Positions 22,037 through 46,366 of a DNA stretch of 64,000 bases are shown one piece after another. Under the pieces are notes generated by a model. That model was not told where the DNA came from, made no database searches, and was given only the letters and a program-made list of their open reading frames with translations. Origin of the DNA: an uncultured Acidobacteriota bacterium (GTDB taxonomy: Bacteria > Acidobacteriota > Thermoanaerobaculia > UBA5066 > Gp7-AA6). The stretch spans positions 171,910 to 235,909 of the forward strand of contig CAVTEG010000015.1 in the NCBI GenBank assembly GCA_963733815.1. Reading direction: 5' to 3'. The stretch's first letter is position 1. Each line of letters opens with the position of its first letter. A program made the translations under genes and the position numbers.

Positions 22037-22369
22037 GACCGCGCTACGCGGTAAACGCTGGCTTCCGCCAGCGTTGCCTGCTTCCGAGGGTCTGCCTTCG
22101 GTGGCCGGCTCGTCCATCGAAAAAATGGGCGGCCCTTCGACCGCCCGGAGGATGGAGGGGCGGGATCCAGCGCCCGCCCTTTCGACTCGGAGCCCTGATG
22201 CTGCGGATGGGATCCAACGCCCATCCGGTTCCGAACGCGATTGCTTTACAAGACTGTACGGACCAGAAGTCGCGGTCAACAAATTATTGATTTCCAGTAA
22301 GTTAGTATGTCAATTCGTGAAAAGCGGCGGTTGTAAAGCCGTTGATGATGTAAATTCACACGCAAAGCG

Positions 22370-24255: not shown

Positions 24256-24268
24256 TACGCTTTCCTCC

Positions 24269-24973
24269 GTGCAGCCGTTTTCTCCGGCGAGATTCCGGAC
24301 ACCGGCGCTGATCTCGCTGCTCGCGCTTGCGCCGGGCTGTGCCAACTACCAGCAGGTGACGGACGCCACGCGCACGATCGACGCGGTGCACGTCACGACC
24401 AAGGCCTCGGACGTCGCGGATTGCCGATTCCTCGAAAAAGTCGACTACCGGGACACGGCGAAGGGCTGCGGTCTGACCGTTCAGCCGACCCCCGAAGAAT
24501 GCCTGCGATATCAGGTGCGAATGATTGGCGGCGACACGCTCCTGCGGGACGGACCGGTCGGAAGCGCCTACGCCTGCTCGTCGCACGCCGCCGAGACGAA
24601 GACGGAAGCATCCTCGCCGTCGGCGGCTCCGGCGGCGGCACCCGTCCCGGCCCCGGCGCCAGCAGCTTTTTCCGGGTCTCCGGCAGCCCCGGCGCCCGTG
24701 GCTGCGCCCACCGCGGCCCCGACACCTGCGCAATCCGCACCGACGCCAGCCGCGGCCGCCGAATCGAAACTCCCGGCGGTTCGGCTGACGTACGATCGCG
24801 ACGAAGCCAAGGGCTGCGTCTATCTGGGCGACTTCGCGCCAGGAGCCGCCTGCGAAGGGCCGGACGCCCAGCTCTCCGCCGACTGCACCGATCAGGCCCG
24901 GAAAGCGGGCGCCGATCTCGTTCTCGTCGAGGGCGTCCGGGCGCAGATGTTCTCGTGCAAGGCGAGACGATGA
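24269..24973 (+). CDS. Lipoprotein with two Cys-containing repeat domains
   Basis: The lipobox is LLALAPGC. Duplicated motifs DCRFLEKVDY...GC and AKGCVYLGDF...C are separated by a Pro/Ala-rich linker. The start (GTG 24269) is uncertain. Confidence 0.5.
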   Translation: MQPFSPARFRTPALISLLALAPGCANYQQVTDATRTIDAVHVTTKASDVADCRFLEKVDYRDTAKGCGLTVQPTPEECLRYQVRMIGGDTLLRDGPVGSAYACSSHAAETKTEASSPSAAPAAAPVPAPAPAAFSGSPAAPAPVAAPTAAPTPAQSAPTPAAAAESKLPAVRLTYDRDEAKGCVYLGDFAPGAACEGPDAQLSADCTDQARKAGADLVLVEGVRAQMFSCKARR

Positions 24974-25266
24974 CCGACTCCCCCGAAGCGGGCGTGCCCG
25001 GACTGACGAATCCTCGCGGCCTTGGCCTCGAGCGCTTTCCGATCCGCGCCCGGGAACAGGCGATGACGCTCGCGGCCTGGCGCCTCTCGGCCGCCGCGGA
25101 GGAGGGGGAGGGGACGATCACGCTGGTGGAGCTTCCCTCGGGCGAAATCCTGCGCCGCGGCGACGGGATCTTCCTGGGATGGACGCAGGAGAGGCTCGGC
25201 CGCGCCTACGAGGCGCTGGCTCCGAGGGACGACGGGCCGCCGATGGAGATGCTCCAGCTCGGCTGA
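24970..25266 (+). CDS. Hypothetical small protein (ATGA-coupled to the lipoprotein gene)
   Basis: A 98-aa ORF whose start overlaps the upstream stop. No domain was recognised. Confidence 0.3.
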   Translation: MTDSPEAGVPGLTNPRGLGLERFPIRAREQAMTLAAWRLSAAAEEGEGTITLVELPSGEILRRGDGIFLGWTQERLGRAYEALAPRDDGPPMEMLQLG

Positions 25267-25270
25267 CGTC

Positions 25271-25690
25271 TCACTCGGGAGGGGAGCCGGCTTCCAGCGT
25301 CCGTCGCTCTTCCGCCGTCAGAAGGGCAGCTGCCGCCGGGTGGTAAACGCCCGCGTTGCCGCGTTCGTGCGCTTCGAGGCGGCGCGAAAGATTCTCGATC
25401 AAGCCCAGCAGGTCGGCGATCGGCGCGCGATTCTCGATCCCGAGCCGGATGTTGCGCGTCAGCTCGCGCAGCTGGACGTACTCGAGAGAAAGCTCGCGCT
25501 GCGGATCGCGGTCCGGAATCACGGCGCGCCGGAGCGCCGGCAGGAGCGCGCTCTCCTCCGCCGCCGTCCAGCGGCACAGGTTGTCGTGGAAGTCGGCGAT
25601 GGCCAGCCGATAGGCCGCCTCGTCGCGCCGATCGAATGCCCGCCGGAAGTCGTCGAACCGCGCGCGCAGTCCCCGCTGCGCCGCGTTCAT
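25271..25690 (-). CDS. Hypothetical protein (possibly hemerythrin-like)
   Basis: A 139-aa ORF from MNAAQRG. A His/Asp/Glu-rich helical pattern (FHDNL, RELT) is present. The assignment is weak. Confidence 0.35.
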   Translation of the reverse strand: MNAAQRGLRARFDDFRRAFDRRDEAAYRLAIADFHDNLCRWTAAEESALLPALRRAVIPDRDPQRELSLEYVQLRELTRNIRLGIENRAPIADLLGLIENLSRRLEAHERGNAGVYHPAAAALLTAEERRTLEAGSPPE

Positions 25691-25709
25691 CAGCGCGCTC
25701 GCCTCGATC

Positions 25710-26528
25710 TCAGACACCCGCGAGTCCCGGCTCGACGCGCTCGAACCCTTGCTCGTGCGCCCAGAGATCGAGCGCGAGGGATGCGAGCTCGTCGACCTCG
25801 GGAATCGGCCGCGCATCCTCGGAAAGGTCGATCGATTTGACGTACTTGCGGCACGTCTCGCAGGCCTCGATGCGGACGGCGGGATGCCGCTCGGTCGTAT
25901 AGGACGGAAGCTTGCGCGGGTCTTCCTCGAAACACGCGGGGCAGAGGATTCGGGTGAAGAGCCACTCTCCTCCGCAAAGAGCGCAGACGAGCGAGCGCCG
26001 CGCGCCCTCCGTCAGCGACCCTTCCCGCCGCGCCGAGACCCACGGAGACCCGCCGCAGAAAGGGCACTGGCCCCTCCGGTGCAGGCGGTCCGGAGGAGTC
26101 ACGGCGACCCGCAGCACCTCCACGTACGGTCGAAGGACCGCCCGCGAGAGATAGTCGTCGCGCGAGGTCGCGTCGCCGCTCCAGTAGACGAGCAGCCGCG
26201 TCCGCGCGGTGGCGGCGAGATCGGACTGCCGCGCGCGGGCGGTTTCGGCGAGCGTTTCGGGACCGGACTGCGCCGCGTAGCCGACGATCCCCGCGGCCTG
26301 TTCGAGAAAGCGCTCGAGGTCCGCGTCCAGGTGTCCCGAGAGACGAGACCCGGCATGCGCGGATTCCAGGTGCTCGGCGAGCCGTCCCTGGGCGCGATAG
26401 AGGCCCGCCGCGAACCGGAGGGGCTCGCGCGCGGTTTCGGCCTGCCCGGCGAGAAGCTCCGCCCGCGCCGCGCGCCGCTCGAATTCCGAAGCGACGGCCG
26501 CGGTGCTACGGACGGCGGGGCTCTTCAC
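25710..26528 (-). CDS. fdhE: Formate dehydrogenase accessory protein FdhE
   Basis: The four CxxC pairs are present: CPFCGG, CALCGGEW, CPAC and CETCRKY. Confidence 0.85.
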   Translation of the reverse strand: MKSPAVRSTAAVASEFERRAARAELLAGQAETAREPLRFAAGLYRAQGRLAEHLESAHAGSRLSGHLDADLERFLEQAAGIVGYAAQSGPETLAETARARQSDLAATARTRLLVYWSGDATSRDDYLSRAVLRPYVEVLRVAVTPPDRLHRRGQCPFCGGSPWVSARREGSLTEGARRSLVCALCGGEWLFTRILCPACFEEDPRKLPSYTTERHPAVRIEACETCRKYVKSIDLSEDARPIPEVDELASLALDLWAHEQGFERVEPGLAGV

Positions 26529-27208
26529 CCGTGACTTCTCGATACCAGCGCGGGTGGTGCACGCGCGCCCAGGTCCGAGTCACCGTGCCACGGATCATGG
26601 ATCCGTATGTGCCCGGTTCCGCGGCGGTGCTCAGGTAGATGTGGAAGACCAGCGACGCCACGAAGCAGATGAAGGTGAAGTCGTGGATGATGAACGCGAG
26701 CTGCATCAGCCAGCGCGGGAAAGCGGTCGGGAACCACATCAGGAGGCCCGAGAGGAGCAGCCCCACGGCTCCGAGCGACACCGCCCAGAAGTAGAGCTTC
26801 TGACCTCCGTTGTACTTGCCGGTGCGGGGATCGTCGGCCGAGGCGTCGTAGCGCATGTAGCGAACGACCCTCGGGCCCACCCAGTCCTTTTCCCACGATT
26901 CGACGCGCATATCGGAGCGCCACTCGAAGAACTGCACCAGCGCCGCGACGAAGAAGGCCAGGCCCGCCCAGGGATGAAGGAGCCGGCAGACGGAGAGACC
27001 GCCGAAGAGGTGCGCCATCCACCCGAAGATCGGCGTCCAGATCGGCAGTCCGGTCAGCAGCGAGAGGAAGAAGGTCAAGGCCACCGTCCAGTGCACGAGC
27101 CGTGAGAATCGACGGTGCCGGACGATCTCGGGGCCGACGACGACGTCTTCGCGGCTTCGGGCCACGACGACTGCGGAATCCATCGGCGCGCGGGGGGCGG
27201 CGGTGCTC
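26506..27208 (-). CDS. fdnI: Formate dehydrogenase gamma (cytochrome b556) subunit
   Basis: The start ATG at 27208 has an AACGGAGGA RBS. It has four TM helices with conserved heme His residues (FSRLVHWTVA, IIHDFTF, FHIYL). Confidence 0.85.
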
Positions 27209-27229
27209 ATCGATGTCCTCCGTTCTGCC

Positions 27230-28106
27230 TCAAGCGCTCGGAAGGTTGGCGTCCTTGTCGCTCGCGCCGCGCGCCTCCTTGGGGCCGTACTTCGTGTAGT
27301 GCGCGAACGCGCCGGCAATGGCGCCGAAAATGGCAAGAACTCCCAGCGGCCGGACGATCTTCTTCCAGATCTTGACTCCCCAGGGCACGTGCGGGTTCGC
27401 GGGCAGGCCGTACCAGTCGGGGTGGTCTCCGTGTGCCAGGATCGTGATGACGCTGGTTCCCCCGACGCCCTTCGGATCGTAGACGGACGCCTGCGCGAAG
27501 CCGTTGGCCTTGAGCTGCTGCACGCGGCCGTGTGCGAGCTCCAGCATGTCGTCCTTGGTGCCGAAGTGCAGGCAGCCGGTCGGGCAGGCCTTGATACACG
27601 CGGGCTCGAGGCCGACCGAGACCCGGTCGACACAGAGCGTGCACTTGGCCATCTTGCCGGTGGTCTGCGAGAACTTCGGGACGTCGAAGGGGCAACCGGT
27701 CTCGCAGTACTGGCAGCCGATGCACTGGTCGGCGTTGACGTCGACGATCCCGTTCTCGTACTGGACGATCGCGCCGGGCGCGGGGCAGGCCTCGAGGCAG
27801 CCCGGCTCGTCGCAGTGCATGCACTGGTCCTTGCGCATGAGCCAGATGATGCCGCCGTCGAAGTCGCGTTCGTTGAAGCGGATGAGGTTCCAGTACTCAG
27901 GGTGCAGCGTCGGGAGCGTCTGGTAGGTGCCGACCTGGTCGGGTTTCGACCGGCTTCAGGTCGTTCCACTCCTGACATGCGACCTCACAGGCCTTGCATC
28001 CAATGCACGTCGTGGTGTCGATGTACTTGGAAACGGTCGGCGTGGTGCGCATGCCGGAAAGGCTTCCCCAGACCGAAGCGGAAGAGCGGCGAATGTCGAG
28101 ACTCAT
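27230..28106 (-). CDS. fdnH: Formate dehydrogenase iron-sulfur (beta) subunit, with one apparent frameshift near 27840-27930
   Basis: The N-terminus ([10 protein letters not shown]...[15 protein letters not shown]) is in the 27897..28106 frame. The rest ([31 protein letters not shown] anchor) is in the 27230..27838 frame. Confidence 0.8.
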
Positions 28107-28119
28107 GGCGCTCCTCCTC

Positions 28120-31100
28120 TCACGCTTTCTCGATTTTCACGAGGAACGCCTTGTACTCCGGCGTCCAGGTGTTCGGGTCCATCGCGGACGGCGTCAGGTG
28201 GTTCGCGAGGGGGCCGGTGTGCCCGGTGTTGCCGGCGGCATACCCCCAGTGGAGCGGGAAGCCGATCTGCCAGATCTCCTTGCCGTCGACTTGAGCTTGA
28301 TGCAGCCGTTTCGTCACCATCGCGACGCCCTGCACGGAGCCGCGCGCGCGACGTGACCTTGACCTGAGATCCGTTGGCGATTCCCTTCTCCTTGGCCAGG
28401 CTCTTCCGGGATCTCGACGAAGAACCCGGGCTGGAGCTGGTTCAAGCCTGGGTGTGCTTGGTCCAGTAGTGGTACATCTCGGTGAGCCGGTAGGTCGTGC
28501 ACGACGATGGGAAAGTCGTACGGTTTCCGTAGACGTCCTTGTCGGATGTGAACTTCTTGGTGGCCGGGCTCGACGCTGACCTTCGGGTGGAGCAGGTTGT
28601 CGACGGGCGCTTCGATCGGTTCGTAGTGCTCGGGGAACGGACCGTCGTTCAAGCGATGCGGCGAAGAGCCGGCCCACGCCTTCCGGCAGCATGATGAAGG
28701 CGCCCGTACTCGCCCGGGCGGCGAGTCGGGCTTGATGTCGGGCACGTCGCCGACCCATTTCTTGCCGTTCCACACGATGCCGGGCCGCTTGGGATCCCAG
28801 GCTTTGCCCTGAGCGTCCGCAGACGCGCGGTTGTACATGATCCGGCGGTTGGCGGGCCAGGAGAAGGTCCAGTTGTGGTACATGCCGAGGCCTGTCGGGT
28901 CGGCGGTCGAGCGGCGCTGCGTGTTGTTGCCGGCCTCGGTGTAGGCGCCCGATGTAGAGCCAGTTGCCGCACATCGTCGAGCCGTCGTCCTGGAGCTGGC
29001 CGAAGCCGTCGAGCTGCTGGCCCGCGGCTTGCACGGAGGCTTCGTCTTGTCCTTGGGGTCCGGGATGTCGGCGACGGCCTTGCCATTCATCTCCTTGAGG
29101 CACTTCGCCGAGATCGGGATTGACCGGGTTGGTGTAGTCCCACGTCGACGTTGAGCGACCGGCTCCGGGACGCGCGCCGCCTTCCTTGCGCGTACAGGTC
29201 GCGAACCGCGAGGAAAATGCGCGCCATGATCTCCTGGTCGGCCCTGGCCTGGCCCGGCGGATCGACCGCCTTCCACTTCCACTGCAACCAGCGCGCGCGA
29301 GTTGGTGAAGCGAGCCGTCTTTCTCGGCGAAGTCGGCGGCGGGAGCTGGAAGACCTCGGTCTGGATCTTCGAGGCATCGGGCGTCCCGTATTCCTTGGGT
29401 GGCCTTCCAGAAGTGGCGGTCTCGATCTCGAAGTTCTCCGACGACCAGCCACTTCAGCTTCGAGAGAGCGGCGATGACCTTCGGCGTGTTCGGCCCGATG
29501 CCGACGGGGTTCATTCCGAACGTGATCAGGCCTTCGGGCGCCGGCTCCTTGCCGCCGGCGCGGTCGAGGTGCCGCGATACATGTCGTCGAAGATGTACAT
29601 CCAGCGAATAGTTGCCGTCGACCTTCGGGAGCCAGGCAGTACCCGAAGTCGTTTTCCTTGGTGGCGTTCTTCCCGTACAGGGCCTTCAGCAGCGAGACCA
29701 TGAACTTCGGATAGTTGCGCCAGTAGTTCATCGAGGCCCAGGCGCTGTTTGTTGAACGTCGTCGGAGTCGCGTCGGTCAGGTAGTCCTGCAGCGTCTGCG
29801 ACGGGCCCGCGAGGCGTCTTCATGTAGCCGGGCAGGATCTCGAACGTTCCCGCCCATGTCGGTGGCGCCCTGGATGTTCGAGTGGCCGCGCAACGCGTTG
29901 ACTCCGCCGCCGGGACGGCCGACGTTGCCCAGCAGCAGTTGCAGCATCGCCGCGCACCGGATCATCTGCACGCCGATCGAGTGCTGCGTCCAGCCCAGAG
30001 CGTACATAATCGTCCCGACGCGTCTCGGGCGGATACGATCGATGTGACGATCTCGGCCGACCTTGAGGAACTTGTCCTCGGGCGTGCCGCAGATGCGCTC
30101 GACCATCTCCGGGGTGTAGCGCTCGACGTGCTTCTTCAGGAGCTGGAAGACGCAGCGCGGGTCCTGCATCGTCGGGTCGACCTCGTAGGCCTTGCTCTTC
30201 GGGTCGGCCTCGTACGCCCAGTTGGTCTTGTCGTACTTCCCGATGCCTCGTCGAATCCGCTGAAGAGGCCCTCGTCGAAGCCGTACTTCTCGCCGATGAG
30301 ATAGGGCCGCGTTGGTGAAGAGCTTGACGTACTCCTCGTGGAAGCGCTTCTGCTCGATGGCGTAGCGGATGATCCCGAGCAGGAAGGCGATGTCGGTGCC
30401 GGCGCGGATCGGGGAGTAGTAAGTCGGCGACCGCAGCGGTGCGTGTGAAGCGCGGATCGACGGCGACGAGCTTGGCACTGCGGTTGCTGCTGGGCTTCGA
30501 TCGCACCACTTGAACCCGCAGGGATGGTTCTCGGCGGGATTGCCGCCCATGGCCAGGATCGACATCGGCGTTCTTGATGTCGATCCAGCCGTTGGTCATG
30601 GCTCCGCGCCCGAACGTGGCGGCCAAACTGGCCACCGTCGGGCCGTGTCAAACCCGGGCCTGGCTGTCCCGGTACGACACCCCCAGGGCCGCGACGGACT
30701 TTCCACTGCAAGAAGTTGAATTCGTTCGTGTCGGTGCAGCCGCCGATCATCGCGATGCCGGGGTTGCGATTGACGGTCTGGCCCTTGGCGTTCTTGGCGA
30801 CGAAGCACCGGTCGCGCGTGTCCTTGATGTGTCGCGCGATTCCGGCGATCGCATCGTCCCAGGAGATGTCCTCCCAGTTGTCCGAGCCCGGCCGGCGGAC
30901 CTTCGGCGTCAGCAGACGGTCGGGATTGTTGATGTCGTCGCGGAGAGTCGAGCCCTTCGGGCAAAGCGTTCCGCGGTTGATCGGGTGTTCGGGATCGCCT
31001 TCGACGTGAACGACGGCGGGTGTCGACGTTCTTGCGCCTTGTCGCCCAGCGTGTGAATGATCACTCCGCAGGAGACCGCGCAGTACGGGCAAGTACTTCG

Positions 31101-31226
31101 GGTCTCGATGGTGCGGGCGATCTTGAACTGCCGCATCTCCGCTTCGGCTGACGAGACGTCGAAGCCGAGTGCGATCGTGGTTCCGATGCCGGTGGCCTTC
31201 AGGAACCCGCGACGCGTGACCTCCAT
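28120..31226 (-). pseudogene. fdnG: Formate dehydrogenase-N catalytic (alpha) subunit, selenocysteine-containing, fragmented by numerous frameshifts
   Basis: The Tat leader is MEVTRRGFLKATG. The CPYCAVSCG Fe-S motif, SILAMGGNPAENHPCGFKW and GTIMYALGWTQHSIG are present, and the C-terminus is [14 protein letters not shown]. The pieces are spread over at least 8 frames and fragments. An in-frame TGA at 30648-30650 gives ARV-U-HGPTVASLAATFGRG. Confidence 0.8.
30605..30647 (-). ncRNA. Candidate SECIS stem-loop immediately 3' of the fdnG UGA
   Basis: The mRNA reads UGA CAC GGC CCG ACG GUG GCC AGU UUG GCC GCC ACG. The hairpins GGCCA-GUU-UGGCC and GUGGC...GCCAC start 11-14 nt after UGA. Confidence 0.35.
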
Positions 31227-31496
31227 CGGTCCTCCTCTCTGGGGGTGTTATCCCGGTGCAAAGAGCGCGCCGACTCAGAATTCAATTCCTCCGCGTCGCC
31301 AATGTCAAGGGGGGCGAAGCGGCGAGTGGCTGCGGTCGCGGGTGGTCATCCGAAGACGCGCCCGGCGCAGCGAGGAGTTACCTCGGGATCCGATATATCC
31401 GGCTCGCCGCGAGGGGGCCTCGGAGCCGCCAGGAGAACGAGGAATCCCGTCGTGACCGGCAGGCCAGCGAGATCGGCCGGCGTGGCAGCGGGCGTC

Positions 31497-32927
31497 TCAC
31501 TCCGGGGAGGCTTCGGCCTCTGTGTCGCGAGGCGGCGTCTTGACCACGGTTACGGTGCACTCCGCCTGGGCAACCACCTGCGAGGATACGCTCCCCAGAT
31601 AACGCCGCAGCGTCGAGCTGCCGCGCGATCCGATGATGATCTGCTCGACGCGGTTGGCGCGGGCGAACTCCAGGATCGCCGCTCCCGGATCGGGCGCTTC
31701 CAGTACGTGGTGAGTGACCTTGCCGGGCACGGTTCCGAGAGGCCGGGCCCAGCGCTTCAGCTTCGCCAGCGCGCGAAGACGGAGGTTTCTGTCCTCGGCG
31801 CCGGCGCCGGTTTCGAGTGCGATCCGCGCCTTCTTCAGGACCGTCAGGCAGGCGAGGCGGGCGCCGGGCTCGGTCTCCCGGACGCGCCGGGCGGTGCGCC
31901 GCAACGCCTCCGACAGCGTCTCAGACCCCTGGGCGAGATCCACGGCCACGACGACGATCGGCGCTTTCGAGCTGGCCTCCACCGGGCGAGGATCCGGCTC
32001 GCCCATCAGCCGGAATCGGCGCTTTGCCACGGCCATGACCCCATCGCGCTCCGTCCGGCGAGCCCTCGCGGAGAGGTGAACCTGATGCGGGTGCTGGAGC
32101 GCGAACGACAGCTGCGCGGCTGTGTCGAACCGATTCTCAGGGGCGACCTCGAGGCAGCGGAGAATCACCTCCTGGAGCCACGGCAGGCAGTCGGGACGGA
32201 TCGCCCGCGGGGGGAGAGGATCCCGGTAGAGGCGGCGCCTGAGACCGTGCACGGACGTCGGATTCCCGAAGGGCCGTTGCCCCGTCGCGAGGAAGTAGAG
32301 CAGCACGCCGAGACCGAACTGGTCGCTTCGCGGGTCGCTGCGAATGCCTCGAATCTGCTCGGGAGAGATGTAAGGACCGGTCCCCATCGGCAGACGGAAC
32401 TGCTCGGCGAGCAGATCGGGGATCTCGTCATGTCGAGACAGCCCGAAGTCGATCAACACGGCCTCTCCCGTGCCGCGAAACATGACATTGCTCGGCTTGA
32501 CGTCGAGGTGGATCACGCGCTGGCGGTGGAGGTCGTGGAGCGCCGAGCCCACCCTCGCTCCGATCGATGCGACCTCGGCGAAGGGGAGTGGAACCTCGTC
32601 GAGACGCGCTCGGAGAGATTCGCCGGCGATCAACTCCATCACGACGTACGGCTGGGGCGGCCCGTCGCCCGAGGCCACGAAGCGTGGGGCATGAGGACCC
32701 GAGACCCTCGGCAGGATCGCCCGCTCGACCTCGAAGCCGACGAGGGCTACGGGATCGGCGCTGTCGCGCCAGGAGGGAATCTTCATCGCCATCGGGGACG
32801 GGCGATCGGGATGGGAGACCCTCCAGATCTCCGCCATGCTGCCCTGGTGGATCTTCTCCTCGAGGCGGAAGCCGTCGACGAGGGTCCCGGGCTCGATCCA
32901 TTCGGTCATGGTGCGGGGAAGCGCCAT
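31497..32927 (-). CDS. Ser/Thr protein kinase fused to a C-terminal universal stress protein domain
   Basis: The start is MALPRTM at 32927. The kinase subdomains are present (AMKIP, HRQRVIHLDVKPSNVM, DFGLS, SPEQ). A Usp fold is at the C-terminus. The 814-aa track ORF has a spurious N-terminus. Confidence 0.75.
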   Translation of the reverse strand: MALPRTMTEWIEPGTLVDGFRLEEKIHQGSMAEIWRVSHPDRPSPMAMKIPSWRDSADPVALVGFEVERAILPRVSGPHAPRFVASGDGPPQPYVVMELIAGESLRARLDEVPLPFAEVASIGARVGSALHDLHRQRVIHLDVKPSNVMFRGTGEAVLIDFGLSRHDEIPDLLAEQFRLPMGTGPYISPEQIRGIRSDPRSDQFGLGVLLYFLATGQRPFGNPTSVHGLRRRLYRDPLPPRAIRPDCLPWLQEVILRCLEVAPENRFDTAAQLSFALQHPHQVHLSARARRTERDGVMAVAKRRFRLMGEPDPRPVEASSKAPIVVVAVDLAQGSETLSEALRRTARRVRETEPGARLACLTVLKKARIALETGAGAEDRNLRLRALAKLKRWARPLGTVPGKVTHHVLEAPDPGAAILEFARANRVEQIIIGSRGSSTLRRYLGSVSSQVVAQAECTVTVVKTPPRDTEAEASPE

Positions 32928-33078
32928 ATCCGCGATCCAGCGTACGGCTCTCGGTCCGCCGTCCTCTGAGCCATTTGCATCAGACGTCTCGGGCCCGCTG
33001 CGGTACGATCCCGAAACCCTCGAAACCGCGCCGCGCCTTCGCGGCGTCCGGGCTCGAGCGAGCGGGAAGGAGGATGGG

Positions 33079-35062
<1,984 letters not shown>

Positions 35063-35066
<4 letters not shown>

Positions 35067-36324
35067 AAGTTGTAGAGACCCGAGAGCGCGAGCTGGTGGC
35101 CGGTAGGTCTTGGTCTCCAGGCCGACCGGTTGACAGCTTGTCGTGCATGTACTCGAAGCCGAACGCGAGCGGCCGCACTTCCAGCGCAGCATCCCGGCGT
35201 ACATCATGTTCTTCATCCGACCGGCCGGACCGACGGCCTGCAGGACGTCGAGGTTCTTGGGATCGTCGATGCCCCAGAATCCGAAGATGCCCCAGTTCTG
35301 AGGTGATGTCGAAGCCGACCTGCGCCCAGCCGCCCTTGCCCCTGGATCTTGCCGAACTGGGTGATCATGCCGAACTGTTGCCGATCGAGTGGCCCGTGTA
35401 GCCGTTGCCCTGGATGAGCACCGGGCCGATCTGGAACTTGGCGCCGATCTCGACGGCCGATCCCGTGAGCTTGTCGTCGGTGACGCCGGGGCCGCAGGGG
35501 TTGGGCGGCCGCCGCAGCCGGAGCGCCGGACCCCGAGAGGTCCTTCTCGTCGATGTGGCCGACGATGTAGGTGCTCCAGGTCCCCTGTCGCCCAGCTTCC
35601 GCCCAGGTTGAAGCGCAGCTCGAACTGCGGCCAGGACGCGTTGCCGGCCGTCTGCCAGTTGACGCAGTTGTTCGTCGTGTCGCAGTTCGGGCCGTTCCAC
35701 GAGCCGGACATCACCGCGGCCTGAATGTCCGCGTTGACGACCGAGTCCTTGGGCGTCAGCTTCTGGACCAGAGAAGATGCCCGGGAAGCGCCAGCCGATG
35801 TCGCCCGCCGAGCCGTAGCCCAGGGGAAAGGCGATGTGCGAGAGCGAGACGGCCGTGTTGCCGAAGAGAGGCGACCATTGCTGGCCCAGCTGGATCGTCG
35901 TGCTGCCGTTGCTCAACTGGACGTAGCCGAGGCGCAGAGCGCGGGGTCGGGCTGCTCGGCGACGAAGGCGCTGTTGGTCGTGCTGCCGTATCCGCCGAAG
36001 AAGTCCATCTCCACGATGGCGCCGGCCTTCCAGTCTGCCGAAGAGCCTCGGACCGTCGAAGACGAGCGTCAGCCGCGTGTTCCGGACGTCGCCGCCGCCG
36101 AACCAGCAGTCGACCACGCAGTTCGGGCCCGGTCGGCACACTCGGCGTTCTGCCCGTTGCCGAAAATGAAGTTCTGGTCCTGGGCGAACAGCGGTGGCGC
36201 TGATGAATCCCTTCAAGCGTGAGGGTGCCGGCGCCGCCGAGTGGACCGTGGCCTGCGCCGACAGGGCGCCGCCACGATCAACAGAAGGGCCGCGACGACC
36301 GAAGAGCGAACCGCGAAACCTCAT
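35063..36324 (-). pseudogene. Outer-membrane porin-like protein, frameshifted (including within the signal peptide)
   Basis: The C-terminus is ...ALSGLYNF. Beta-barrel-like fragments occur in several frames, and two indels lie within the first 30 codons. Confidence 0.4.
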
Positions 36325-36555
36325 GCCAGCTCCTTTCGCTTCTCCGTTAGACGCCGTCGCGCCGCAGACGATCGGGCGCGAGGACCGGTAACGCCCGGGG
36401 CCGGGTCAGGGGGGTCGGCGGCCTCTTCTTCGCCGGGAAGCTCGAGCTCGGCGGCGCGCCTCTCCGCGCGTCCCGGGGAGCCACTGGTCCTGCGCTTCCG
36501 CATCGCCGTTCGGCCGTCTTCACGACCGGTATAATCCCTCTTCTTGCCACGAGAT

Positions 36556-37400
36556 TCATTTCACGGATCCGAACGTAAATCCGGCGATGAACCGGTCCAG
36601 GAACAGGTTGTAGACCACACCGATGGGGAGGCTCGCGATCAGGCAGGCCGCCATCAGCGACCCCCAGTAGTAGACGTCGCCCCGGACGAGGTAAGATCGG
36701 CACACCCGACGCCCACGGTCTGGTGCGAGGCCGAGGAGATGAACGTCAGGGCGTAGACGAACTCCTGGGTCACCAGCGTGAAGGAGAAGATCACGACGGT
36801 CAGGATCCCGGAAATCGAGATCGGCACGATCAGCTTGCTGGAACGTCTGGAACCGCGTCAGGCCGTCGACCATGGCCGCGTCCTCGAGCTCCGCGGGATC
36901 GACTTGAAGAACCCCATCAGGAGCCAGGTCGAGAACGGAATGGTGAAGCTCGGGATACACCACGACCACCGACCAGATGCGTGTCCTGCAATCCGAGGCC
37001 GCCACGACCCGCGACAGGGGGATGAACAGCAGGGTCGGCGGCACCAGGTAGGTCAGAAAGATGGCGATTCCCATGCGCTCCCCCAGCGTCCGGTCAGGCG
37101 GGCCAGGGCGTAGGCCGCCGGCAGGGCGAGCAGCAGCGTGATCGCCACGACACAGGCCCCGGCGAGGGCGGTGTTCCAGAGCCAGCGAGGAAACAGGGTT
37201 TCCTGGAACAGCAGCCGCAGGTGCTCCAGCGTGGGGGGCTGGTGGAAGAGAAACGGGTTGTTCTTCAGGTCGTAGAGGTCGCTCGTTCTCTTGAAGGTGG
37301 TGATCAGCATCCAGTAGAACGGGAAGGAGAGGCCGACCGAGAAAGCGGCAAGGATTCCCCACCGAACCGCCGTCCCAGCGCCCGGCGCGCCCGGCGTCCG
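36556..37400 (-). pseudogene. ABC transporter permease (MalG-like, second permease), frameshifted
   Basis: The C-terminus VVYNLFLDRFIAGFTFGSVK is intact. The N-terminus LSFPFYWMLITTFK is in another frame. Confidence 0.6.
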
Positions 37401-38254
37401 GCCATCAGCCCACCTCCGCGCGGTGCGCGGTGCGCAGCATCCGCCAGGCCACCAGCGACGAGCAGCGGCAGCAGGAAGATCGAGATCGCGGCACCCTCGG
37501 CGAGGTCGCTGCCGAGAATGCCCGTGAAGAAGGCAAGCGACGGCAGGACCTGCGTCGTGTCGTAGGGCCCGCCGCGCGTGAGGATGTAGATCACCGTCAT
37601 GTCCGTGAACGTGAAGACGATCCCGAAAAGCAGCGCGACGTTGATGATCGGCAGCAGCATCGGCATCGTGATCTGGAAGAGGGTCCGGAAGTAGCCGGCG
37701 CCGTCGACCGCGCGGCCTCGGGAATGTCCTCGGGATCGCCGTCCAGCCGGCCAGAAGGATCACGGTGGCGAACGGCAGCACGTGCCAGGTGTGCACCAGG
37801 ATGACCGAGATCATCGCCAGCGTCGGATCTCCCAGCCACATCGGCGGAGAGAACTCGTTGACCAGATGCAGCCGGATCAGCACCCAGTTGATGACGCTGT
37901 AGAGCGAATCGAGGATCCACTTCCAGCCGATCGAGCCGATCGACACCGGAGCGACCCACGGCAGGAGGATGAGGAAGCGGATCAGACGCCGGCCCTCGGA
38001 ACGCGTCCTTCAGCACGAGCGCCAGGACGTTTCCTCCGACCAGCACGAGGACCTGGGAGCAGACCGTGAAGACGATCGAGTTGCGCAGCGCCCGCCGAAA
38101 CGACGGGCTCTCGGAGCACCGACGCGAAGTTGTGCAGCCCGACGAAGTGGTAGCCGGTGGATCCGACCTTCACGTCGCCCACCGCGTAGACGAAGGCCAG
38201 GAGGAAGGGCACGCCGACCAGGGCGAGGACGTAGAGGATGGCCGGGGCGAGCAT
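37380..38254 (-). pseudogene. ABC transporter permease (MalF-like, first permease), frameshifted
   Basis: The N-terminus is MLAPAILYVLALVGVPFLLAFVYAV, the middle is VILVHTWHVLPFATVILLAG and the C-terminus is TRGGPYDTTQVLPSLAFFTG, spread over three frames. Confidence 0.55.
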
Positions 38255-38331
38255 CGCCGGGCCCGAGCCAGCGCTCGCGCGGCCGCCGGCTCTTCACTCG
38301 AGCGCCGCGGCGTCGCGCCGGCGCTCCCGTC

Positions 38332-39345
38332 TCACTGTCGAAGAATTTCAGCTTGGGCGCGCTCGACCTGGAAAGGCCGCGACGGAGCCGGACGCCGCCG
38401 CCGGGGTGAAAAGTGGCGGGCAATCGCGAAACCGCTTTCTCGCCGTCGAAACGGCCGCCTTCCAGGCGGCCGTAGAGGATGCGTTCGGACCCGAGGTATT
38501 CCTCGTGGTCGAGATGAAACGAGAGAGAGCAGCGTCGATGGGGAAGCGGATGCGGCGCCCTCCGAGGGAAAGAAGTGCTCGGGCCGGAACCCGATGATCG
38601 CCGTCTCGCCCTGGACGAGGTTCATCGGAGGCGAGCCGAGAAAAGTCGCGACGAACGTGTCTGCGGGATCGTCGTAGACGTCGGCGGGAGTCCCGATCTG
38701 CCGCACCCGCCCCTGGTGCATCACGACGACCCGGTCGCCCATCGCCATGGCCTCGATCTGATCGTGGGTGACGTAGATCATCGTCGTCCCGATCCGGCGC
38801 TGGAACTGCTCGAGCTCCTCCCTGGCCGAGGCGCGGAGCTTGGCGTCGAGGTTCGAGAGGGGCTCGTCGAGAAGAAAGACCGTCGGCTCGCGGACGATCG
38901 CCCGTGCGAGGGCGACCCGCTGCCGCTCCCCGCCGGACAACTCGCGCGGCCGGCGGCCGAGAAGATGGCCGATCCCGAGAAGATCCGCCGCCCATTGCGC
39001 CTTCTTTTGCCGCTCGGGTCGGGCGACCTTCTGGGCCTTCAGCGGAAAGACGATGTTTCCGAGCACCGTCAGGTGGGGATAGAGGGCGTAGCTCTGGAAC
39101 ACCATCGCGATCCGGCGTTCGCGCGGGGTCATGTCGTTGACGACGACGCCCCCGATCAGGACGTCGCCCGAGGTCGGTTCCTCGAGCCCGGCGATCATGC
39201 GCAGGAGCGTGGTTTTCCCGGAGCCCGACGGGCCCAGGAGAACCAGGAACTCGCCCTCGCGGCTTTCCAGGTCGACGCCGACGACCGCCCCGACGGAACC
39301 CTGGCGAAAAGTTTTGGTCAGTGCCCTGGTCTGGACGATCGCCAT
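38332..39345 (-). CDS. ABC transporter ATP-binding protein (MalK/UgpC-like); C-terminal tail likely frameshifted
   Basis: Walker A GPSGSGKTT, LSGGERQRVALARA and Walker B FLLDEPLSNLD are present. The last about 100 aa lack the TOBE-domain pattern. Confidence 0.75.
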   Translation of the reverse strand: MAIVQTRALTKTFRQGSVGAVVGVDLESREGEFLVLLGPSGSGKTTLLRMIAGLEEPTSGDVLIGGVVVNDMTPRERRIAMVFQSYALYPHLTVLGNIVFPLKAQKVARPERQKKAQWAADLLGIGHLLGRRPRELSGGERQRVALARAIVREPTVFLLDEPLSNLDAKLRASAREELEQFQRRIGTTMIYVTHDQIEAMAMGDRVVVMHQGRVRQIGTPADVYDDPADTFVATFLGSPPMNLVQGETAIIGFRPEHFFPSEGAASASPSTLLSLVSSRPRGIPRVRTHPLRPPGRRPFRRRESGFAIARHFSPRRRRPAPSRPFQVERAQAEILRQ

Positions 39346-40666
39346 CTAGGGCGTCACTTCCACTTGTCGAAGATGCGCTTGGTCTCCTTCTCCGCGGCGC
39401 GGGCCGCATCTTCCGGGCGAAAGGACGTCCTGGGCGGCTTTGGCAAACATCGTCGGAATCACGAACGTGTTGAAGACTTCGTCGATCGCCGCGGTCGCGT
39501 AGCCGGGGTAACCGACGTTGGTGGCCCAGTCCAGGACGTTGGCCAGGACCTTGTACTTGTCGGGAGGGTTGGCCTTGGGGTCGTTCGCGAGCTGCTGGGC
39601 CAGGTCCGGCACCGTCGCGGGGAAGCACGGGAAGTTGTAGAACTCGCTGGCCTTGAACGCCGTCCCGAAGTTGTCCATGTAGTCGAGCAGGAACTGCTTG
39701 GCGCCGTCCTTGTTCTCCGCGAAGTCCCAGATCACGTAGCAGTCCATGACGTGCTCGGCCGCGATGCGCCGCACGGGACCCTTCAGCGCCGGCGTGAGCC
39801 AGATCTTGGCGGACATTTCGGGGTTGTCCTTCTCCGCCGTGCGCGTGACCGAGATGGCGTTGTCCACGAAGGAGAGCTTGCCGGCGATGATGCCGCGGTT
39901 GTTGGAGGAGGGATCCCAGTGAAGACCTCGGGAGTCATCGTCTCCTTGAAGAGCGAGCGCACGTACTTGAGGGCGTCGATAGTCTGCTTGGAGTAGATCG
40001 CGACCTTGCCGTCCTCGTTCTGCTCGGCGCCGCCGAACGACCAGAGGAGCCCTCGCAGCGCCATGTTCGAGTCGAGCTCCTGCGAGAGGCCCACGCCGAC
40101 CGGGTTGCCGAACTGGTCCTTGATCTTCTTCCCGCCGACCCGCAGGTCGTCCCAGGTATCCGGGCCGTTGGGAAAGCCGACTTTCTCCCAGAGGTCCTTG
40201 CGGTAGTTGCCGGGGTCCGGCACGTAGGAGTCGGAGAAGGCGAAGTACTTCTTGGTCTTCGGGTTGAGGGTCGAACGCTCGGCCAGCGCGATCTTCTTGC
40301 CGTGCTTCTTCTCGACGGCCTCGTAGATCTCGCGGTGGTCGATGACCTGCTTCTCGTAGGCTGCCGGCGGCGGAGGAACATGAACAGGTCGTGGCCCTTC
40401 TTCGCCGCGACTTCCGCGGCCGCCCGCGCGTTGACCTCGCCGATCGCGATGTGGTCGACAGTCACGTTCGTGTCGTACTTTGCCGCCCACTCCTTTGTGA
40501 AGACACCGTCGAACCACTTGTCGTATCCCGGAACGAAGTGGCTCCACTGGATGATCTTCAGGGTCTTCTGCTGCGCGGCCGCCCGCGCCGGGAAGAGGAA
40601 GTTGGCGCCGAGCCCGGCCGCGGCCGCTCCGGCTCCGGTGAGTTTCGCGAACTGGCGGCGGGTCAT
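39346..40666 (-). pseudogene. ABC transporter substrate-binding protein, paralog of 20552-21991, split into three frames
   Basis: Fragments MTRRQFAKLTGAGAAAAGLG...KTLKIIQWSHFVPGYDKWFDGVFTKEW and ...DTWDDLRVGGKKIKDQFGNPVGVGLSQELDSNMALR... and ...GPVRRIAAEHVMDCYVIW... match the intact copy. Confidence 0.7.
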
Positions 40667-40701
40667 GCCCGTCTTCGCGCTGTCTGTGTCATGACCCTAC
40701 C

Positions 40702-42369
40702 TCAAATGCGCGATTGCGCGAATCCGGCGACCGTGAAGGTCGCTGTCAGAAGTGACGAATGCCCACGTCCTTGGTCTCGCTTGATGAAGAGGCTTCCGAT
40801 CACGAAGCTCATCAGCGCGACGATGATCGGGTACCAGAGACCGGCATAGATGTTGCCCTTCGAGGCCACCATGGCCGTCGCGAGCAACGGCAGCATGCCG
40901 CCGAACCAGCCGTTGCCGATGTGGTACGGCAGCGACATCGACGTGTAGCGGATCCGCGTCGGGAAGAGCTCGACGAGAAACGCCGCGATGGGCCCGTACA
41001 CCATGGTCACGTAGATCACGAGAATGACCAGGATCAGGATCGTCATCGTCCAGTTGAGTCTGAGTCTTGTCGAATTTCAGGGTAGTTGGTGGTCTTGAGC
41101 GCTTCCTTGTACTTGTCTTCGTCGAAGCCCTGCAGCTCGATGCTGCCGATCTTCGTGACGACCGGTCTGGCCCTCGACCGGCGGCAGCTCCGTGAAGGAG
41201 AGGCCCGCCTTGTTCAGGAAGTCGCGGGCCTTGTCGCAGTCGGAGTAGACGGTCTTCGTCGCCGGGAAAATGTGGACCTGGCAGTCCGTGGCCGCGACGC
41301 TGATCGGCGTGTTGGCCGAGTAAGGCCTCGATCGCCGGGTTGACGTTGTGCGTCAGGGCCTTGAAGAGCGGAATGTACGTCAGCGCCGCGATCAGGCAGC
41401 CCGCCATGATGATCCACTTGCGGCCGATGCGGTCGGAGAGGCTGCCGAAGAAGATGAAGAACGGCGTGCCGATGACGAGCGAGACGCCGATCAGCATGTA
41501 GGCCTTCAGGTAGTCGAGCTTGAGGTCGAGCGTGAGGAAAAAGAGCGCGTAGAACTGGCCCGTGTACCACACGACGCCCTGGCCCGCCGTCGCGCCGAAG
41601 AGCGCGAGCAGCACGAGCTTGGCGTTCCCCCAGTTGGCGAAACTGTCCGTCAGCGGCGCCTTGGAGCCCTTGCCCTGCGCCTTCATCTCCGTGAAGACCG
41701 GCGACTCCTGCAGCTTGAGCCGGATGTAGACGGAGATGGCGAGCAGGACAGCGAGACCAGGAACGGGAATGCGCCAGCCCCAGCTCTTGAACTCTCGGCG
41801 GCATCATGCCGCGGCAGAGTCCGATCACGACCAGGGCGAGGAAGAGGCCGAGCGTCGCCGTCGTCTGGATCCAGGCGGTGCGCGGCCCGCGCTTGCCCGT
41901 GCGGGGCGTGCTCGGCCACGTAGGTCGCCGCGCCGCCATATTCGCCTCCGAGCGCGAGGCCCTGGAGCAGGCGCAGGACAGCAGCAGGATGCCGGCGCCG
42001 ACGAATGCCGATCGAGGCATAGGTCGGCAGCAGGCCGACGGCCGCGGTCGAAGCGCCCATCACGACGATGGTGATCGAGAAAGGTGTATTTCCGCCCGAC
42101 GAGATCGCCGATCCGGCCGAACACGAGCGCGCCGAACGGCCGGACGAGGAACCCGGCGGCATAGGCGACGAAGGAGGCCGAGCAAAGCCGCGGTCGCGTT
42201 GCCCGGCGGGAAGAACAGGGCCGCGAAGAAGGGCGCCAGGGTGCCGTAGATGTAGAAGTCGTACCACTCGAAGACCGTGCCCAGCGACGAGGCGAAGATG
42301 ACCCGTTTTTCCGCGCCCGTGAAGGTCCCGGCCGGTGGTCTGGTTGTTTTCCGCGACAGCCGTCGACAT
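40702..42369 (-). pseudogene. MFS transporter (metabolite:H+ symporter family), frameshifted
   Basis: LFPTRIRYTSMSLPYHIGNGWFGG, GSLSDRIGRKWIIMAG and N-terminal fragments lie in three frames. Confidence 0.6.
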
Positions 42370-42689
42370 CGCTTCCCTCCTTCAGTTCACGACAAAACGA
42401 ATCCGGACAAATTCGCGAATAGGTGCGGGGGGCGGGATGGTCAGGGGGTACGGGTCCGGACAAAGGGCGGGCAGCGGGCGTCGACCCTCGGCCCGTCCGC
42501 TGACCCTCGGCAAAACCTCGGTAGGCGTAGGCAACGTGGTCCTTCGACCTCGAAGGTGGTTGCAGTCTTTTTCCAGATCTCGGCGATGTCAAGGGGATTC
42601 ACAGCGGCGGCGGTTCGCAGGACCGCGTCCCGGCCGCCGACGACCGGGACTAAGATTGCGCTCCGCCCCTTGGTCGAAAGGAGGCAGCC

Positions 42690-44800
42690 ATGGCCGACGC
42701 GCACAGACCGGTGGAGGTCGCGGAAACGACCGAAGCGCAGATCGCGGTCCATTGGAAGGAAGAGGAGTACTACTCTCCGCCCGCCAGTTTCGTCGCGCAG
42801 GCGAACCTGAAGGACCCCGCGGTCAACGATGGTTTCGCCGAAAAGAACTTTCCGAAGTGTTTCGAGGAATTCGCGGAACTGCTCGCCTGGGACAAGAAGT
42901 GGGACACGGTCCTCGACACGAGCGAGGCGCCGTTCTGGAAATGGTTCGTGGGCGGCAAGCTGAACGTATCCCGCAACTGCATCGACCGGCACCTGGCGAA
43001 GTACACGAACAAGGCCGCGCTGATCTCGGTGCCGAGCTCGAGGAAGAGGGCCACGGTCACGGTGACGTACCAGGAGCTCTACGTTCGCGTCAACGAGTTC
43101 GCCGCGCTCCTGCGCGACTTCGCGGGCCTGAAGGCGGAGACCGCGTCACGATCCACATGCCGATGCTGCCGGAGCTTGCCGATCACCATGCTCGCATGCG
43201 CGCGGCTCGGCGTGATCCACTCGGTCGTGTTCGGCGGCTTCAGCGGCGAAGCCTGCGGTCTGCGCGCGGCCGACTCGGGCAGCCGCGTGCTCATTTACAT
43301 GGACGCCTACTATCGGAGCGGCAAGCTCATCGACCACAAGCCCGGAGCCGTCGAGACGGCCGTCGCCGCGGCGAAGGCGAACGGGCAGCCGGTCGACAAG
43401 GTCCTGGTGTGGCGCCGCAGGCCGGGCAAGAGCTCCTCCGAGGCGCCCATGGTGGAGGGCCGGGACTTCTTCGTGGACGACCTCCTCCGAACTACCGGGG
43501 CAAGCGAATCGAGCCCGTCTCCATGGATGCGAACGACCCGCTCTTCCTGATGTACACGAGTGGCACGACCGGTAAGCCCAAGGGGTGCCAGCATCGGACC
43601 GGCGGCTACCTCGCCTACGTCACGCGGGACCTCGAAGTGCATCCAGGACATCCACCCGGAGGACGTCTACTGGTGCATGGCGGACATCGGATGGATCACG
43701 GGCCACTCCTACATCGTCTACGGTCCGCTCGCTCTTGCGGCGACGTCGGTCCTGTACGAAGGGGTTCCCAACTACCCCGACGCGGCCGGCCCTGGCGGAT
43801 CGCCGAGCGGCTGGACGTCAACATCTTCCACACGTCGCCGACGGCGATCCGGATGCTGCGCAAGGCCGGCGCCGACGAGCCGGCAGAAGTACCAGTACCA
43901 CTTCAAGCACATGACGACGGTCGGCGAGCCGATCGAGCCCGAGGTCTGGCGGTGGTACTACGACGTCGTCGGCAAGGGCGAAGCGGTCATCGTCGACACG
44001 TGGTGGCAGACCGAGAACGGAGGTTCCTCTGCAGCACGCAAACCGGCGCTGGACCGGATGAAGCCGGGAAGCGCCGGCCCGGGAGTGCCCGGCATCGACC
44101 CGGTCGATCTACGACGAGAAGGGCGAGGAGACGGTCGCGGGACCGGGAAGGCCGGAAACATCTGCATCCGGAATCCCTGGCCCGGCATCTTCCAGACCAT
44201 CTGGGGCGACCAGGATCGCTTCGTGCAGCAGTACTACTCGAAGTACTGCAAGGACCCGAAGAGCAAGGACTGGCGGGACTGGCCCTACTTCGCGGGCGAC
44301 GGGGCCGTGCTCGCCGCCGACGGTTACTTCCGGATCCTGGGCCGCGTCGACGACGTGATCAACGTCGCGGGCCATCGCCTGGGGACCAAGGAGCTGGAGT
44401 CGGCGTGTCTCACTGTCCCGCAGGTCGCGGAGGCGGCCGTGGTGCCCGTCGTCGACGACATGAAGGGACGCGTCCCGAGCATCTATCATCGCGCTGAAAC
44501 CCGGCGTCACGGCGAACAAAAAGGTGACCGACACCGTCGTCTCGAGGCTCGAGACGATGATCGGCGAAGATCGCTCGGCCCAAGACGGTGCACGTCGTTC
44601 CGGACATGCCCAAGACGCGCTCCGGAAAGATCATGCGCCGCGTCCTCGCCGCGATCTCCAACGAGATGGACACGGGAGACATCACGACGCTCGCCAATCC
44701 CGACATCGTCGAGCAGATCCGCCAGGCCGTCCAGGGCAAGGAAAAACGCGTAACCCGCGAGGGTCCCGAAGACGTGAAGAAGTTCGGCGAGCAGGAGTAG
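42690..44800 (+). pseudogene. acs: Acetyl-CoA synthetase, multiple frameshifts
   Basis: FWKWFVGGKLNVSRNCIDRHL, LMYTSGTTGKPKG, WCMADIGWITGHSYIVYGPL, WWQTENGG and the C-terminal TRSGKIMRRVLAAI are spread over at least 5 frames. Confidence 0.75.
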
Positions 44801-44851: not shown

Positions 44852-45958
44852 GTGAGGGCATCCGGAAGCGTTCTGGACGGCCAGGTCCTGGGCCGGCTGG
44901 ATCGCTGGCGGAAGGCACGCGCCGTCTTCGTCCGCCCCGACGGGGTCGAAGCGGAGCGGGCCGTTTCCGCGGCGTTCGGCCGGAACTGGGCGCGTGCCCC
45001 GATGTACGGACGGGCGCGCCGCCTGCTCGTCGAGCGAACCCCCGAACAATTCCTGGAAGAGCTCGAGCGCAAGCTCGGCCCTCTGGCCGACAAGGTTCGC
45101 GTGGCGCCCGAGGACATGCGCCAGACCAAGTGGGACGCGATGAGCCACTTGACGCCCCTTCCTCGCGCGCGCCAGGAAGTGGAGGCGCTCTGGCTCGCCG
45201 ACGAGCTGACCACGGGGGAGTTCTTCGTCGAGTTCCAGCCTCTCTTCGACTTGAAGACCGGGTCGGCCATCGGATACGAGAGCCTTCTGCGCGGCCGGGG
45301 ACGCGACGGGCACACGCGTCCGGCGGCGGAGATTTTTCCGGCCGCGGCGGCCCTGCATCTGGAGCCGACGTTCGAGCGGTTCTCCTGGAGCTGCGTCCTC
45401 GAGGCGGCCGACCGGCTGCCCGACGGCGCGCTGCTGTTCTTGAACGTCAACCCGCGCCTGATCGACCGCTCGGAAAATGCCCTCGCGGGCCTCGGCCAGG
45501 AGGCCGAGCGGCGCGGACTCTCCTTCGCGAGGATCGTCCTCGATTTGGTCGAGGTCGAGACGCTTCCTAACGTCGCCGACCTCGCGCAGGCCCTGCGCGT
45601 GCCGCGCGACCTCGGAGCGGTCATCGCTCTGGACGACGTGACGTCCGGGTACGGCACGCTGCAGATGTGTCACGTGCTCCAGCCCGAGTTCATCAAGGTC
45701 GACGCCGAGGTCACGCGGGGTATCGCCCACGACCCGAGGCGCCGCGCGATCCTGAAGTTTCTCGGAGACCTGTCCAAGGAGTTCTCGTTCCGCCTGGTCG
45801 CAGAGGGCATCGACAACGCCGAGGATCTCGAGGTCTGCGCGGCGGAAGGCGTTGGCGTGGCGCAGGGTTACTTCCTGGCACGCCCGGCCGAAAAGCCCCC
45901 GGAGGCCACGCCGGGAGCTCTCGGCGTGGCTCGAATCCCGGCCCGCGGGCCTTCGCTC
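44852..45958 (+). CDS. EAL-domain protein (putative c-di-GMP phosphodiesterase) with an unknown N-terminal domain; no stop before the next gene
   Basis: The EAL core is present (EFQPLFDL, ESLLR, NVNP, DDVTSGYG, KVD, QGYFLARP). It continues in frame into the Hsp15 ORF. Confidence 0.65.
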
Positions 45959-45961
45959 GGC

Positions 45962-46366
45962 ATGAACGCGGACCCCTCCGGGGGACCGCTCCCGTCCGTT
46001 CGTCTCGACGTCTGGCTCGACGTCGCCTGCGTCTATCCCACTCGGTCGCAGGCCAAGGCTGCGTGCGAAGGCGGGAAGGTCGACGTCAACGGCGAAAGGG
46101 CCAAGCCGCATCGCGAGATCCGCCCCGGCGACCGCATCTCCCTCTCCGGGCGAGAAGGCCGGCGGCGGGAGCTGATCGTCCGGGGTCTGGCCGAGCGCTC
46201 GATTCCGAAGGCCCAAGCGCGAAAGCTCTACGAGGACGTCACGCCCGCGCCGGCCCCGGAAGTCCTCGAAGCACGGCGTCTGGACCGCATACTCACGCCT
46301 CGCGGCGACGCCGGCCGGCCGGACAAGCGGGATCGGAGGGAGCGCATCCGCTTCAAGCGCTCCTGA
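45962..46366 (+). CDS. hslR: Ribosome-associated heat shock protein Hsp15 (S4 RNA-binding domain)
   Basis: RLDVWLDVACVYPTRSQAKAACEGGKVDVNGERAKPHREIRPGDRISL is the S4 fold of HslR. The 134-aa length is typical. Confidence 0.7.
   Translation: MNADPSGGPLPSVRLDVWLDVACVYPTRSQAKAACEGGKVDVNGERAKPHREIRPGDRISLSGREGRRRELIVRGLAERSIPKAQARKLYEDVTPAPAPEVLEARRLDRILTPRGDAGRPDKRDRRERIRFKRS

Follow-up and report, generated by a model that had tools for sequence, protein, structure and literature searches.

Gene Content of the Locus

The window, meaning the whole 64,000-nucleotide stretch of Acidobacteriota DNA analyzed here, contains an indel-dense block at positions 27,940–44,566, with the genes of a formate dehydrogenase-N (FDH-N) at its left edge, two acetate–CoA ligase genes, a complete ABC transporter, a metabolite symporter and a protein kinase gene. 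Genes were annotated by Pfam and NCBIfam searches with the window fragments and with the intact copies in L002, a syntenic contig of another Acidobacteriota genome. The G+C content of the window is about 67%, and raw ORF lists are therefore noisy. A stop-to-stop ORF scan with high GC3 showed most of the window to be covered by long, clean ORFs, with only fragments at about 28–45 kb. A single tRNA-Asn was found by Rfam in the window besides the SECIS element described below.

The FDH-N genes are located on the minus strand. fdhE and fdnI (25,713–27,229), belonging to the same functional unit as fdnGH, carry no window-specific frameshift. The beta subunit gene fdnH (27,230–28,109; Pfam Fer4_11 and Form-deh_trans) has one +1 insertion at 27,940, as evidenced by a tblastn frame switch and codon analysis, and its distal 700 bp are clean. 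The selenocysteine-containing alpha subunit is encoded by fdnG (28,123–31,230), the L002 orthologue of which matches TIGR01553 in full with 1117 bits. In the window this gene is interrupted by about 34 frame-breaking indels (27 insertions and 7 deletions). Its selenocysteine TGA codon (30,648–30,650) can be read directly in the sequence, and an intact SECIS element (30,595–30,653, minus strand; Rfam SECIS_3, 70.8 bits versus a gathering score of 63) directly follows it. The in-frame TGA, the SECIS element and the FdnG orthologue identify the predicted product as selenocysteine formate dehydrogenase-N. Gene order, selenocysteine codon and SECIS element are thus the same as in an authentic selenocysteine-dependent fdnGHI-fdhE locus, the difference being the many interruptions of fdnG and the one in fdnH.

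Two acetate–CoA ligase genes are encoded on the plus strand. acs1 (33,050–35,003), assigned to the family through its L002 orthologue (NF001208, TIGR02188), carries 19 frame-breaking indels, comprising 17 insertions and 2 deletions. acs2 (42,654–44,800) carries about 16–18 events, consistent across L002 and the three metagenome contigs L027, L030 and L051. Between them, on the minus strand, lies a gene for a 483-aa protein (35,066–36,559) with about 24 events, as determined by frame correction on the L002 codons. A Pfam and NCBIfam search with the L002 orthologue of this protein produced no match to a known family.

The ABC transporter genes are all on the minus strand. Two permeases, both with a BPD_transp_1 domain in the L002 orthologue, contain nine (36,559–37,396) and six (37,408–38,285) events, and after correction their products are 94.5 and 96.9% identical in amino acid sequence to the respective orthologues. 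The ATPase gene (38,297–39,345; Pfam ABC_tran) is broken by five +1 insertions, all of them in its C-terminal part (38,321–38,530), while the N-terminal 272 codons are clean. The solute-binding protein (39,357–40,700), carrying a TAT-type signal, has about five to six events according to tblastn and alignment: +1 at 39,417, −1 at 39,918, −1 at 40,372 and two +1 insertions at codons 3–7. Alignment with the intact paralogue elsewhere in the window (20,668–21,811) likewise shows the two deletions. The last gene of the minus-strand series encodes an MFS metabolite/H+ symporter (40,749–42,381; Sugar_tr, MFS_1 and TIGR00883 in the L002 orthologue), with 12 events and six frame pieces by tblastn.

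Embedded among the broken genes is one that is fully intact, coding for a Ser/Thr protein kinase with a Usp domain (31,497–32,894, minus strand; Pfam Pkinase and Usp). It matches L002, L003 and the metagenome contig L104 in a single frame, with no gaps over 1,519 bp, and has thousands of homologues of about 470 aa. A longer, 814-aa ORF at 31,497–33,941 was considered as one gene and rejected, as the first 350 residues of its product are acs1 read in antisense, and the kinase/Usp protein is confined to the C-terminal part of about 465 aa.

Most gene-level statements of the initial annotation hold: one shift in fdnH, both acyl-CoA synthetase copies broken, two indels within a signal peptide (the insertions at codons 3–7 of the solute-binding protein) and an intact paralogue of that protein, which occupies 20,552–21,991. 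fdnG is multiply broken, as it had stated, though far beyond the minimum of 8 shifts given. Its description of nearly every gene of the block as frameshifted is right for eleven genes, but not for the kinase/Usp gene, which it did not list, and its label of porin for the 483-aa product is not borne out by the Pfam and NCBIfam searches.

Extent of the Indel-Dense Block

The block was delimited by pairwise and triple alignments to L001, L002, L027, L030, L051 and L104. L001 and L002 are collinear contigs of Acidobacteriota MAGs found by a genome scan with the ORF 31,497–33,941 as the query. According to blastn, their collinearity with the window extends over 22,237–43,966 for L002 and 22,243–35,760 for L001, in both cases at about 84% nucleotide identity. 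L027, L030 and L051 were obtained from a metagenome scan with the gene located just right of the block and cover 38.6–46.7 kb and beyond. L104, reached via a protein search with the kinase, is a 2.4-kb JGI metagenome contig with 93% identity to the window. For references of 75–79% identity, raw blastn gap counts include a great many compensating gap pairs and were used only where several references agree. The intergenic segment 31,325–31,524, which according to the alignments exceeds its counterparts in L001, L002 and L104 by about 150 bp, was left out of indel scoring.

Over these 16.6 kb, about 185 indels of lengths other than multiples of three (126 insertions and 59 deletions) distinguish the window from its syntenic relatives, corresponding to about 11 per kb. 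In the flanks, comprising about 47 kb, there is at most one frame-breaking indel, located in kdpB, which amounts to a roughly 500-fold contrast in density. The gaps of the left flank genes (22.2–27.9 kb) relative to L001 and L002 are nearly all multiples of three, and the right flank (44.85–58.9 kb) gives single-frame matches to ORFs of the relatives. The claim of a dense frameshift block with clean flanks is therefore confirmed in a stronger form than that in which it was made, with its limits corrected from 27,230–44,800 to those given above.

About 80% of the block events were recovered at matching positions when a second reference was used, and L104, used as an independent reference, recovered six insertions in the 5′ region of fdnG. 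Comparison with orthologous loci of relatives, suggested in the initial annotation, revealed that every compared gene is intact in all six reference contigs and that the block indels are absent from all of them.

Both edges of the block lie within genes. The left edge is inside fdnH, and the right edge is inside acs2, where the last event (44,566) precedes the stop codon by 234 bp. In a three-way alignment with L001 and L002, window-specific 1-bp insertions rise at the boundary from 0 to 4–8 per 500 bp, while L001 and L002 are essentially without 1-bp insertions of their own. Synteny with the relatives, as evidenced by blastn, continues unbroken through both edges, and no repeats flanking the edges were found. 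A mis-join, including the repeat-induced one considered in the initial annotation, or a foreign insert is thus not indicated. A megablast search of the block against a plasmid collection produced distant gene-level matches only.

The events are unevenly distributed within the block. The longest clean patch (about 31,318–33,067; 1.75 kb) contains the kinase/Usp gene and has no events versus about 18 expected, its length being well beyond what a uniform error rate would give. Clean patches do not follow gene borders: another one, at 38,531–39,416, starts partway through the ATPase gene, and the five insertions that break this gene lie further on. The stretch 39,418–40,371 holds a single event.

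Spectrum and Sequence Context of the Indels

Single-base events account for 155 of the 185 indels (84%), and the insertion:deletion ratio of the block is 2.1. In pseudogenes of Burkholderia leaf-nodule symbionts, this ratio is 0.76–0.94 and the mean deletion is about 19 nt (PMC6054270). The deletion-biased spectrum with a wide range of sizes that is expected of pseudogenes is thus not seen in the block.

The inserted bases are not enriched in homopolymers. Runs of length 1, 2, 3 and 4 contain 65, 22, 17 and 3 of them, versus 55.5, 31.7, 14.4 and 4.3 expected if base and site were both random, so that the distribution of run lengths equals the random expectation. The coincidence of frameshifts with homopolymers, proposed as a check in the initial annotation, is therefore absent. 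The composition of the inserted bases is that of the background, and neither a flanking motif nor a strand bias was found at the insertion sites. Since the insertions are not linked to homopolymers, replication slippage is not their source. Homopolymer-type platform error, as in 454, Ion Torrent or residual ONT/PacBio consensus, was likewise considered and rejected, because the indels are not concentrated in homopolymer runs. Insertions and deletions do not alternate overall in the way that compensation would produce (P = 0.30); in acs2 alone the alternation is marginal (P = 0.037) and is lost after multiple testing.

Residual errors of well-covered PacBio and ONT assemblies lie mostly in homopolymers (PMC8574707, PMC9262707), unlike the indels of the block, which fit raw or low-depth stochastic noise instead. 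Insertion:deletion ratios for PacBio are inconsistent in the literature. For both these reasons, no platform is named here from the sequence.

Selection after Frame Correction

For frame correction, the window was projected onto the L002 codons and indels of lengths other than multiples of three were dropped. The resulting 4,739 codons of the eleven block genes contain no internal stops; three flagged stops in the corrected frames are all upstream of true start codons. The corrected proteins are 79–97% identical to their L002 orthologues. Their dN/dS values are 0.06–0.20, with 0.34 for the 483-aa gene, compared to 0.04–0.16 for clean flank genes and 0.14 for the clean kinase gene. The N/S ratio along the window lineage is 0.17–0.20 for fdnG and acs1, 0.13 for the clean kinase gene and 0.20 for the clean fdhE.

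The three-way alignment with L001 and L002 revealed no excess of window-specific substitutions in the block, their rate being flat across the boundary at about 4–10% per site on both sides. Neutral mutation usually produces several substitutions per indel. At such a proportion, 185 neutral indels would have been accompanied by substitutions in the hundreds and stop codons in the tens, of which there is no sign.

Origin of the Indels

The indels of the block are window-specific, fall in random sequence contexts, are distributed by position and not by gene, and come without any sign of relaxed selection. The block is most probably, at a probability of about 0.92, a technical artefact, a consensus made from little or unpolished error-prone read data, and we infer that its cause lies in read depth or polishing. 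The 16.6-kb consensus would have been built on sparse or unpolished error-prone reads, for example, in a long-read gap fill, a low-depth region or a bridged gap of a hybrid assembly, leaving stochastic single-base indels at a rate of about 1% per base. The genes themselves, namely fdnGH, the two acs genes, those of the ABC and MFS transporters and that of the 483-aa protein, would be intact and functional in the organism, and the clean patches, including the one with the kinase gene, would be places that by chance had better support. Read as such an artefact, the feature is real in the sequence, not in the organism. The preference of the initial annotation for an artefact is supported by the absence of stops, the flank-like dN/dS, the lack of a substitution excess, the insertion-biased single-base spectrum and the boundary that cuts the fdnGHI-fdhE operon. 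Its own argument, that a selenoprotein gene is broken, carries no weight in itself, and the selenocysteine codon and SECIS element happen to be intact.

The alternative of decaying paralogues raised in the initial annotation would make the block a genuine pseudogene cluster, in which eleven neighboring genes, some with paralogues, decay by real frameshifts and the kinase gene is kept by selection. The presence of a paralogue of the solute-binding protein and of two acs copies would agree with it, as would the position of the kinase/Usp gene, the only intact one, in the longest clean patch. In the solute-binding protein, moreover, a new in-frame ATG has arisen through an I-to-M change directly ahead of the TAT motif, downstream of the two insertions. 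Burkholderia leaf-nodule symbiont pseudogenes likewise have several frameshifts per gene in neighboring genes (PMC6054270), but in genuine pseudogenes deletions outnumber insertions, indel sizes vary widely, nonsense codons occur and dN/dS is relaxed. The block has none of these features: its indels are insertion-biased and nearly all of 1 bp, the corrected frames are free of stops, dN/dS is that of intact flank genes and lineage-specific substitutions are not in excess. The genes are, besides, intact in three to six relatives. Nor does the decay extend to the whole functional unit, as would be expected of pseudogenes: the distal 700 bp of fdnH together with fdnI and fdhE contain no events versus about 25 expected at the block rate, although they would be useless without FdnG. 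The clean kinase patch could look like selection, but selection need not be invoked: the other clean patches cut through genes, uneven support explains all of them, and the chance that a random 1.6-kb clean patch covers a whole gene is about 20% by our own estimate, summed over the seven genes that are short enough. Gene decay is therefore rejected as a very unlikely explanation.

Slightly less likely still is a consensus of a mixed population, in which reads of co-existing strains were collapsed and spurious indels were called for reasons other than low depth. The soil metagenomes from which the relatives derive contain many related lineages, and near 31.5 kb the tree of the window, L001 and L002 switches topology, suggesting recombination or strain mosaicism. 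A collapse of strains should, however, mainly yield mosaic substitutions, and window-specific substitutions are not elevated, while single-base indels independent of context, such as these, are typical of read noise. Such a mixture would in any case still be an artefact. More remote again is the presence of the indels in the DNA of the organism, either through a very recent burst of mutagenesis that inserted single bases in this region only, or because they are tolerated through restoration of the frame at the RNA level; in that case eleven genes under selection would have been disrupted and the embedded kinase gene spared. The specific proposal that the genes are functional despite real indels, with the frame restored at the RNA or translation level by cryptogene-style editing or pervasive recoding, has a practically negligible probability. 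The purifying selection on the corrected frames, despite the broken DNA frame, is what edited cryptogenes would look like, but the sites are not shared with relatives at 84–93% nucleotide identity and show no motif or strand bias, and the block takes in genes of either orientation as well as intergenic DNA, with both of its edges inside genes. To our knowledge, no such editing or recoding system exists in bacteria.

Consequences for Annotation

Gene-fragmenting indel errors are a known problem of long-read or hybrid assemblies (PMC12007338). The block resembles them in that single-base indels split conserved ORFs, the relatives are intact and removal of the indels restores full-length proteins; it differs in its confinement to 16.6 kb of a contig that is otherwise very clean and in its lack of a link to homopolymers. 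Annotation of the contig as is would produce eleven false pseudogenes, among them those for selenocysteine formate dehydrogenase, both acetyl-CoA synthetases and the whole ABC transporter, which would distort both metabolic reconstruction and pseudogene counts for the lineage. Watson and Warr reportedly issued a warning about gene-fragmenting indel errors in long-read assemblies in 2019. The main value of the present case is that of a quality and annotation warning, its biological interest being low.

The analysis also offers a read-free way to separate assembly noise from gene decay, based on syntenic relatives. It consists of the removal of indels followed by an assessment of stop codons, dN/dS and lineage-specific substitutions, and takes in the spectrum and context of the indels and the position of the boundary relative to functional units.

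Outside the block, a frameshift was found in kdpB (minus strand) alone, in agreement with the initial annotation. Alignments to KdpB sequences from PDB in two frames and the sequence itself place it as one +1 insertion near 6,237, outside a homopolymer. This insertion is of the same kind as those of the block, which suggests that the same process acted elsewhere in the window at a very low residual rate.

Lineage Topology and Gene Structure within the Indel-Dense Block

Over 26-35.7 kb, the topology of the tree relating the window to L001 and L002, two collinear contigs of Acidobacteriota metagenome-assembled genomes, switches near 31.5 kb. In fdnI-fdnG, the formate dehydrogenase-N genes, L001 is the most divergent of the three sequences, while in the kinase gene and acs1, encoding an acetate--CoA ligase family protein, this position is taken by the window. 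The switch suggests recombination among the lineages of the window, L001 and L002. Between the stop codon of the kinase gene and the start of fdnG, the window has an intergenic segment (31,325-31,524) that exceeds its equivalents in L001, L002 and L104, a short contig closely related to the window, by about 150 bp. An in-frame stop is present within fdnH of L002 (positions 16,313-16,315 of that contig), where L001 and the window continue reading; L002 may carry a truncated gene here, or its assembly may contain an error.

The seemingly intact 814-aa ORF at 31,497-33,941 of the minus strand was rejected as a single gene. Only its C-terminal part of about 465 aa, a kinase/Usp protein, is real, and the N-terminal 350 aa are an antisense shadow of acs1, which is encoded on the opposite strand.

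At the start of the solute-binding protein gene (40,640-40,700, minus strand), an isoleucine-to-methionine replacement relative to L002 and the metagenome contig L027 creates an in-frame ATG immediately preceding the twin-arginine motif (MTRRQF...). Since two +1 insertions are located just upstream of this new ATG, translation could start there.

Genes and Repeats in the Flanking Regions

Outside the block, kdpB (4,515-6,546, minus strand) is divided between two frames by one +1 insertion at 6,237, which reads ACC-G-ATG on the coding strand. No homopolymer is present at this site, and the event is of the same type as the indels of the block.

To the right of the block, a single 504-aa ORF (44,852-46,366, plus strand) comprises an EAL phosphodiesterase-like part (residues ~105-350) and an Hsp15/S4-like part (residues 382-503). 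In L027 the frames differ, and the first ORF stops near the junction of the two parts. The 504-aa ORF could be a fusion or, alternatively, two adjacent genes.

In the stretch at 23.8-25.7 kb, GC3 gives no clear indication of coding in the window or in either relative (L001 and L002), and there are numerous indels between the lineages, of multiples of three nucleotides and of other lengths; the one ORF checked there for a family match had none. A tandem array at 55,838-56,206 consists of 13.7 copies of a 27-nt unit (87% match), with an additional higher-order period of 108 nt; if coding, it would specify a 9-residue repeat.
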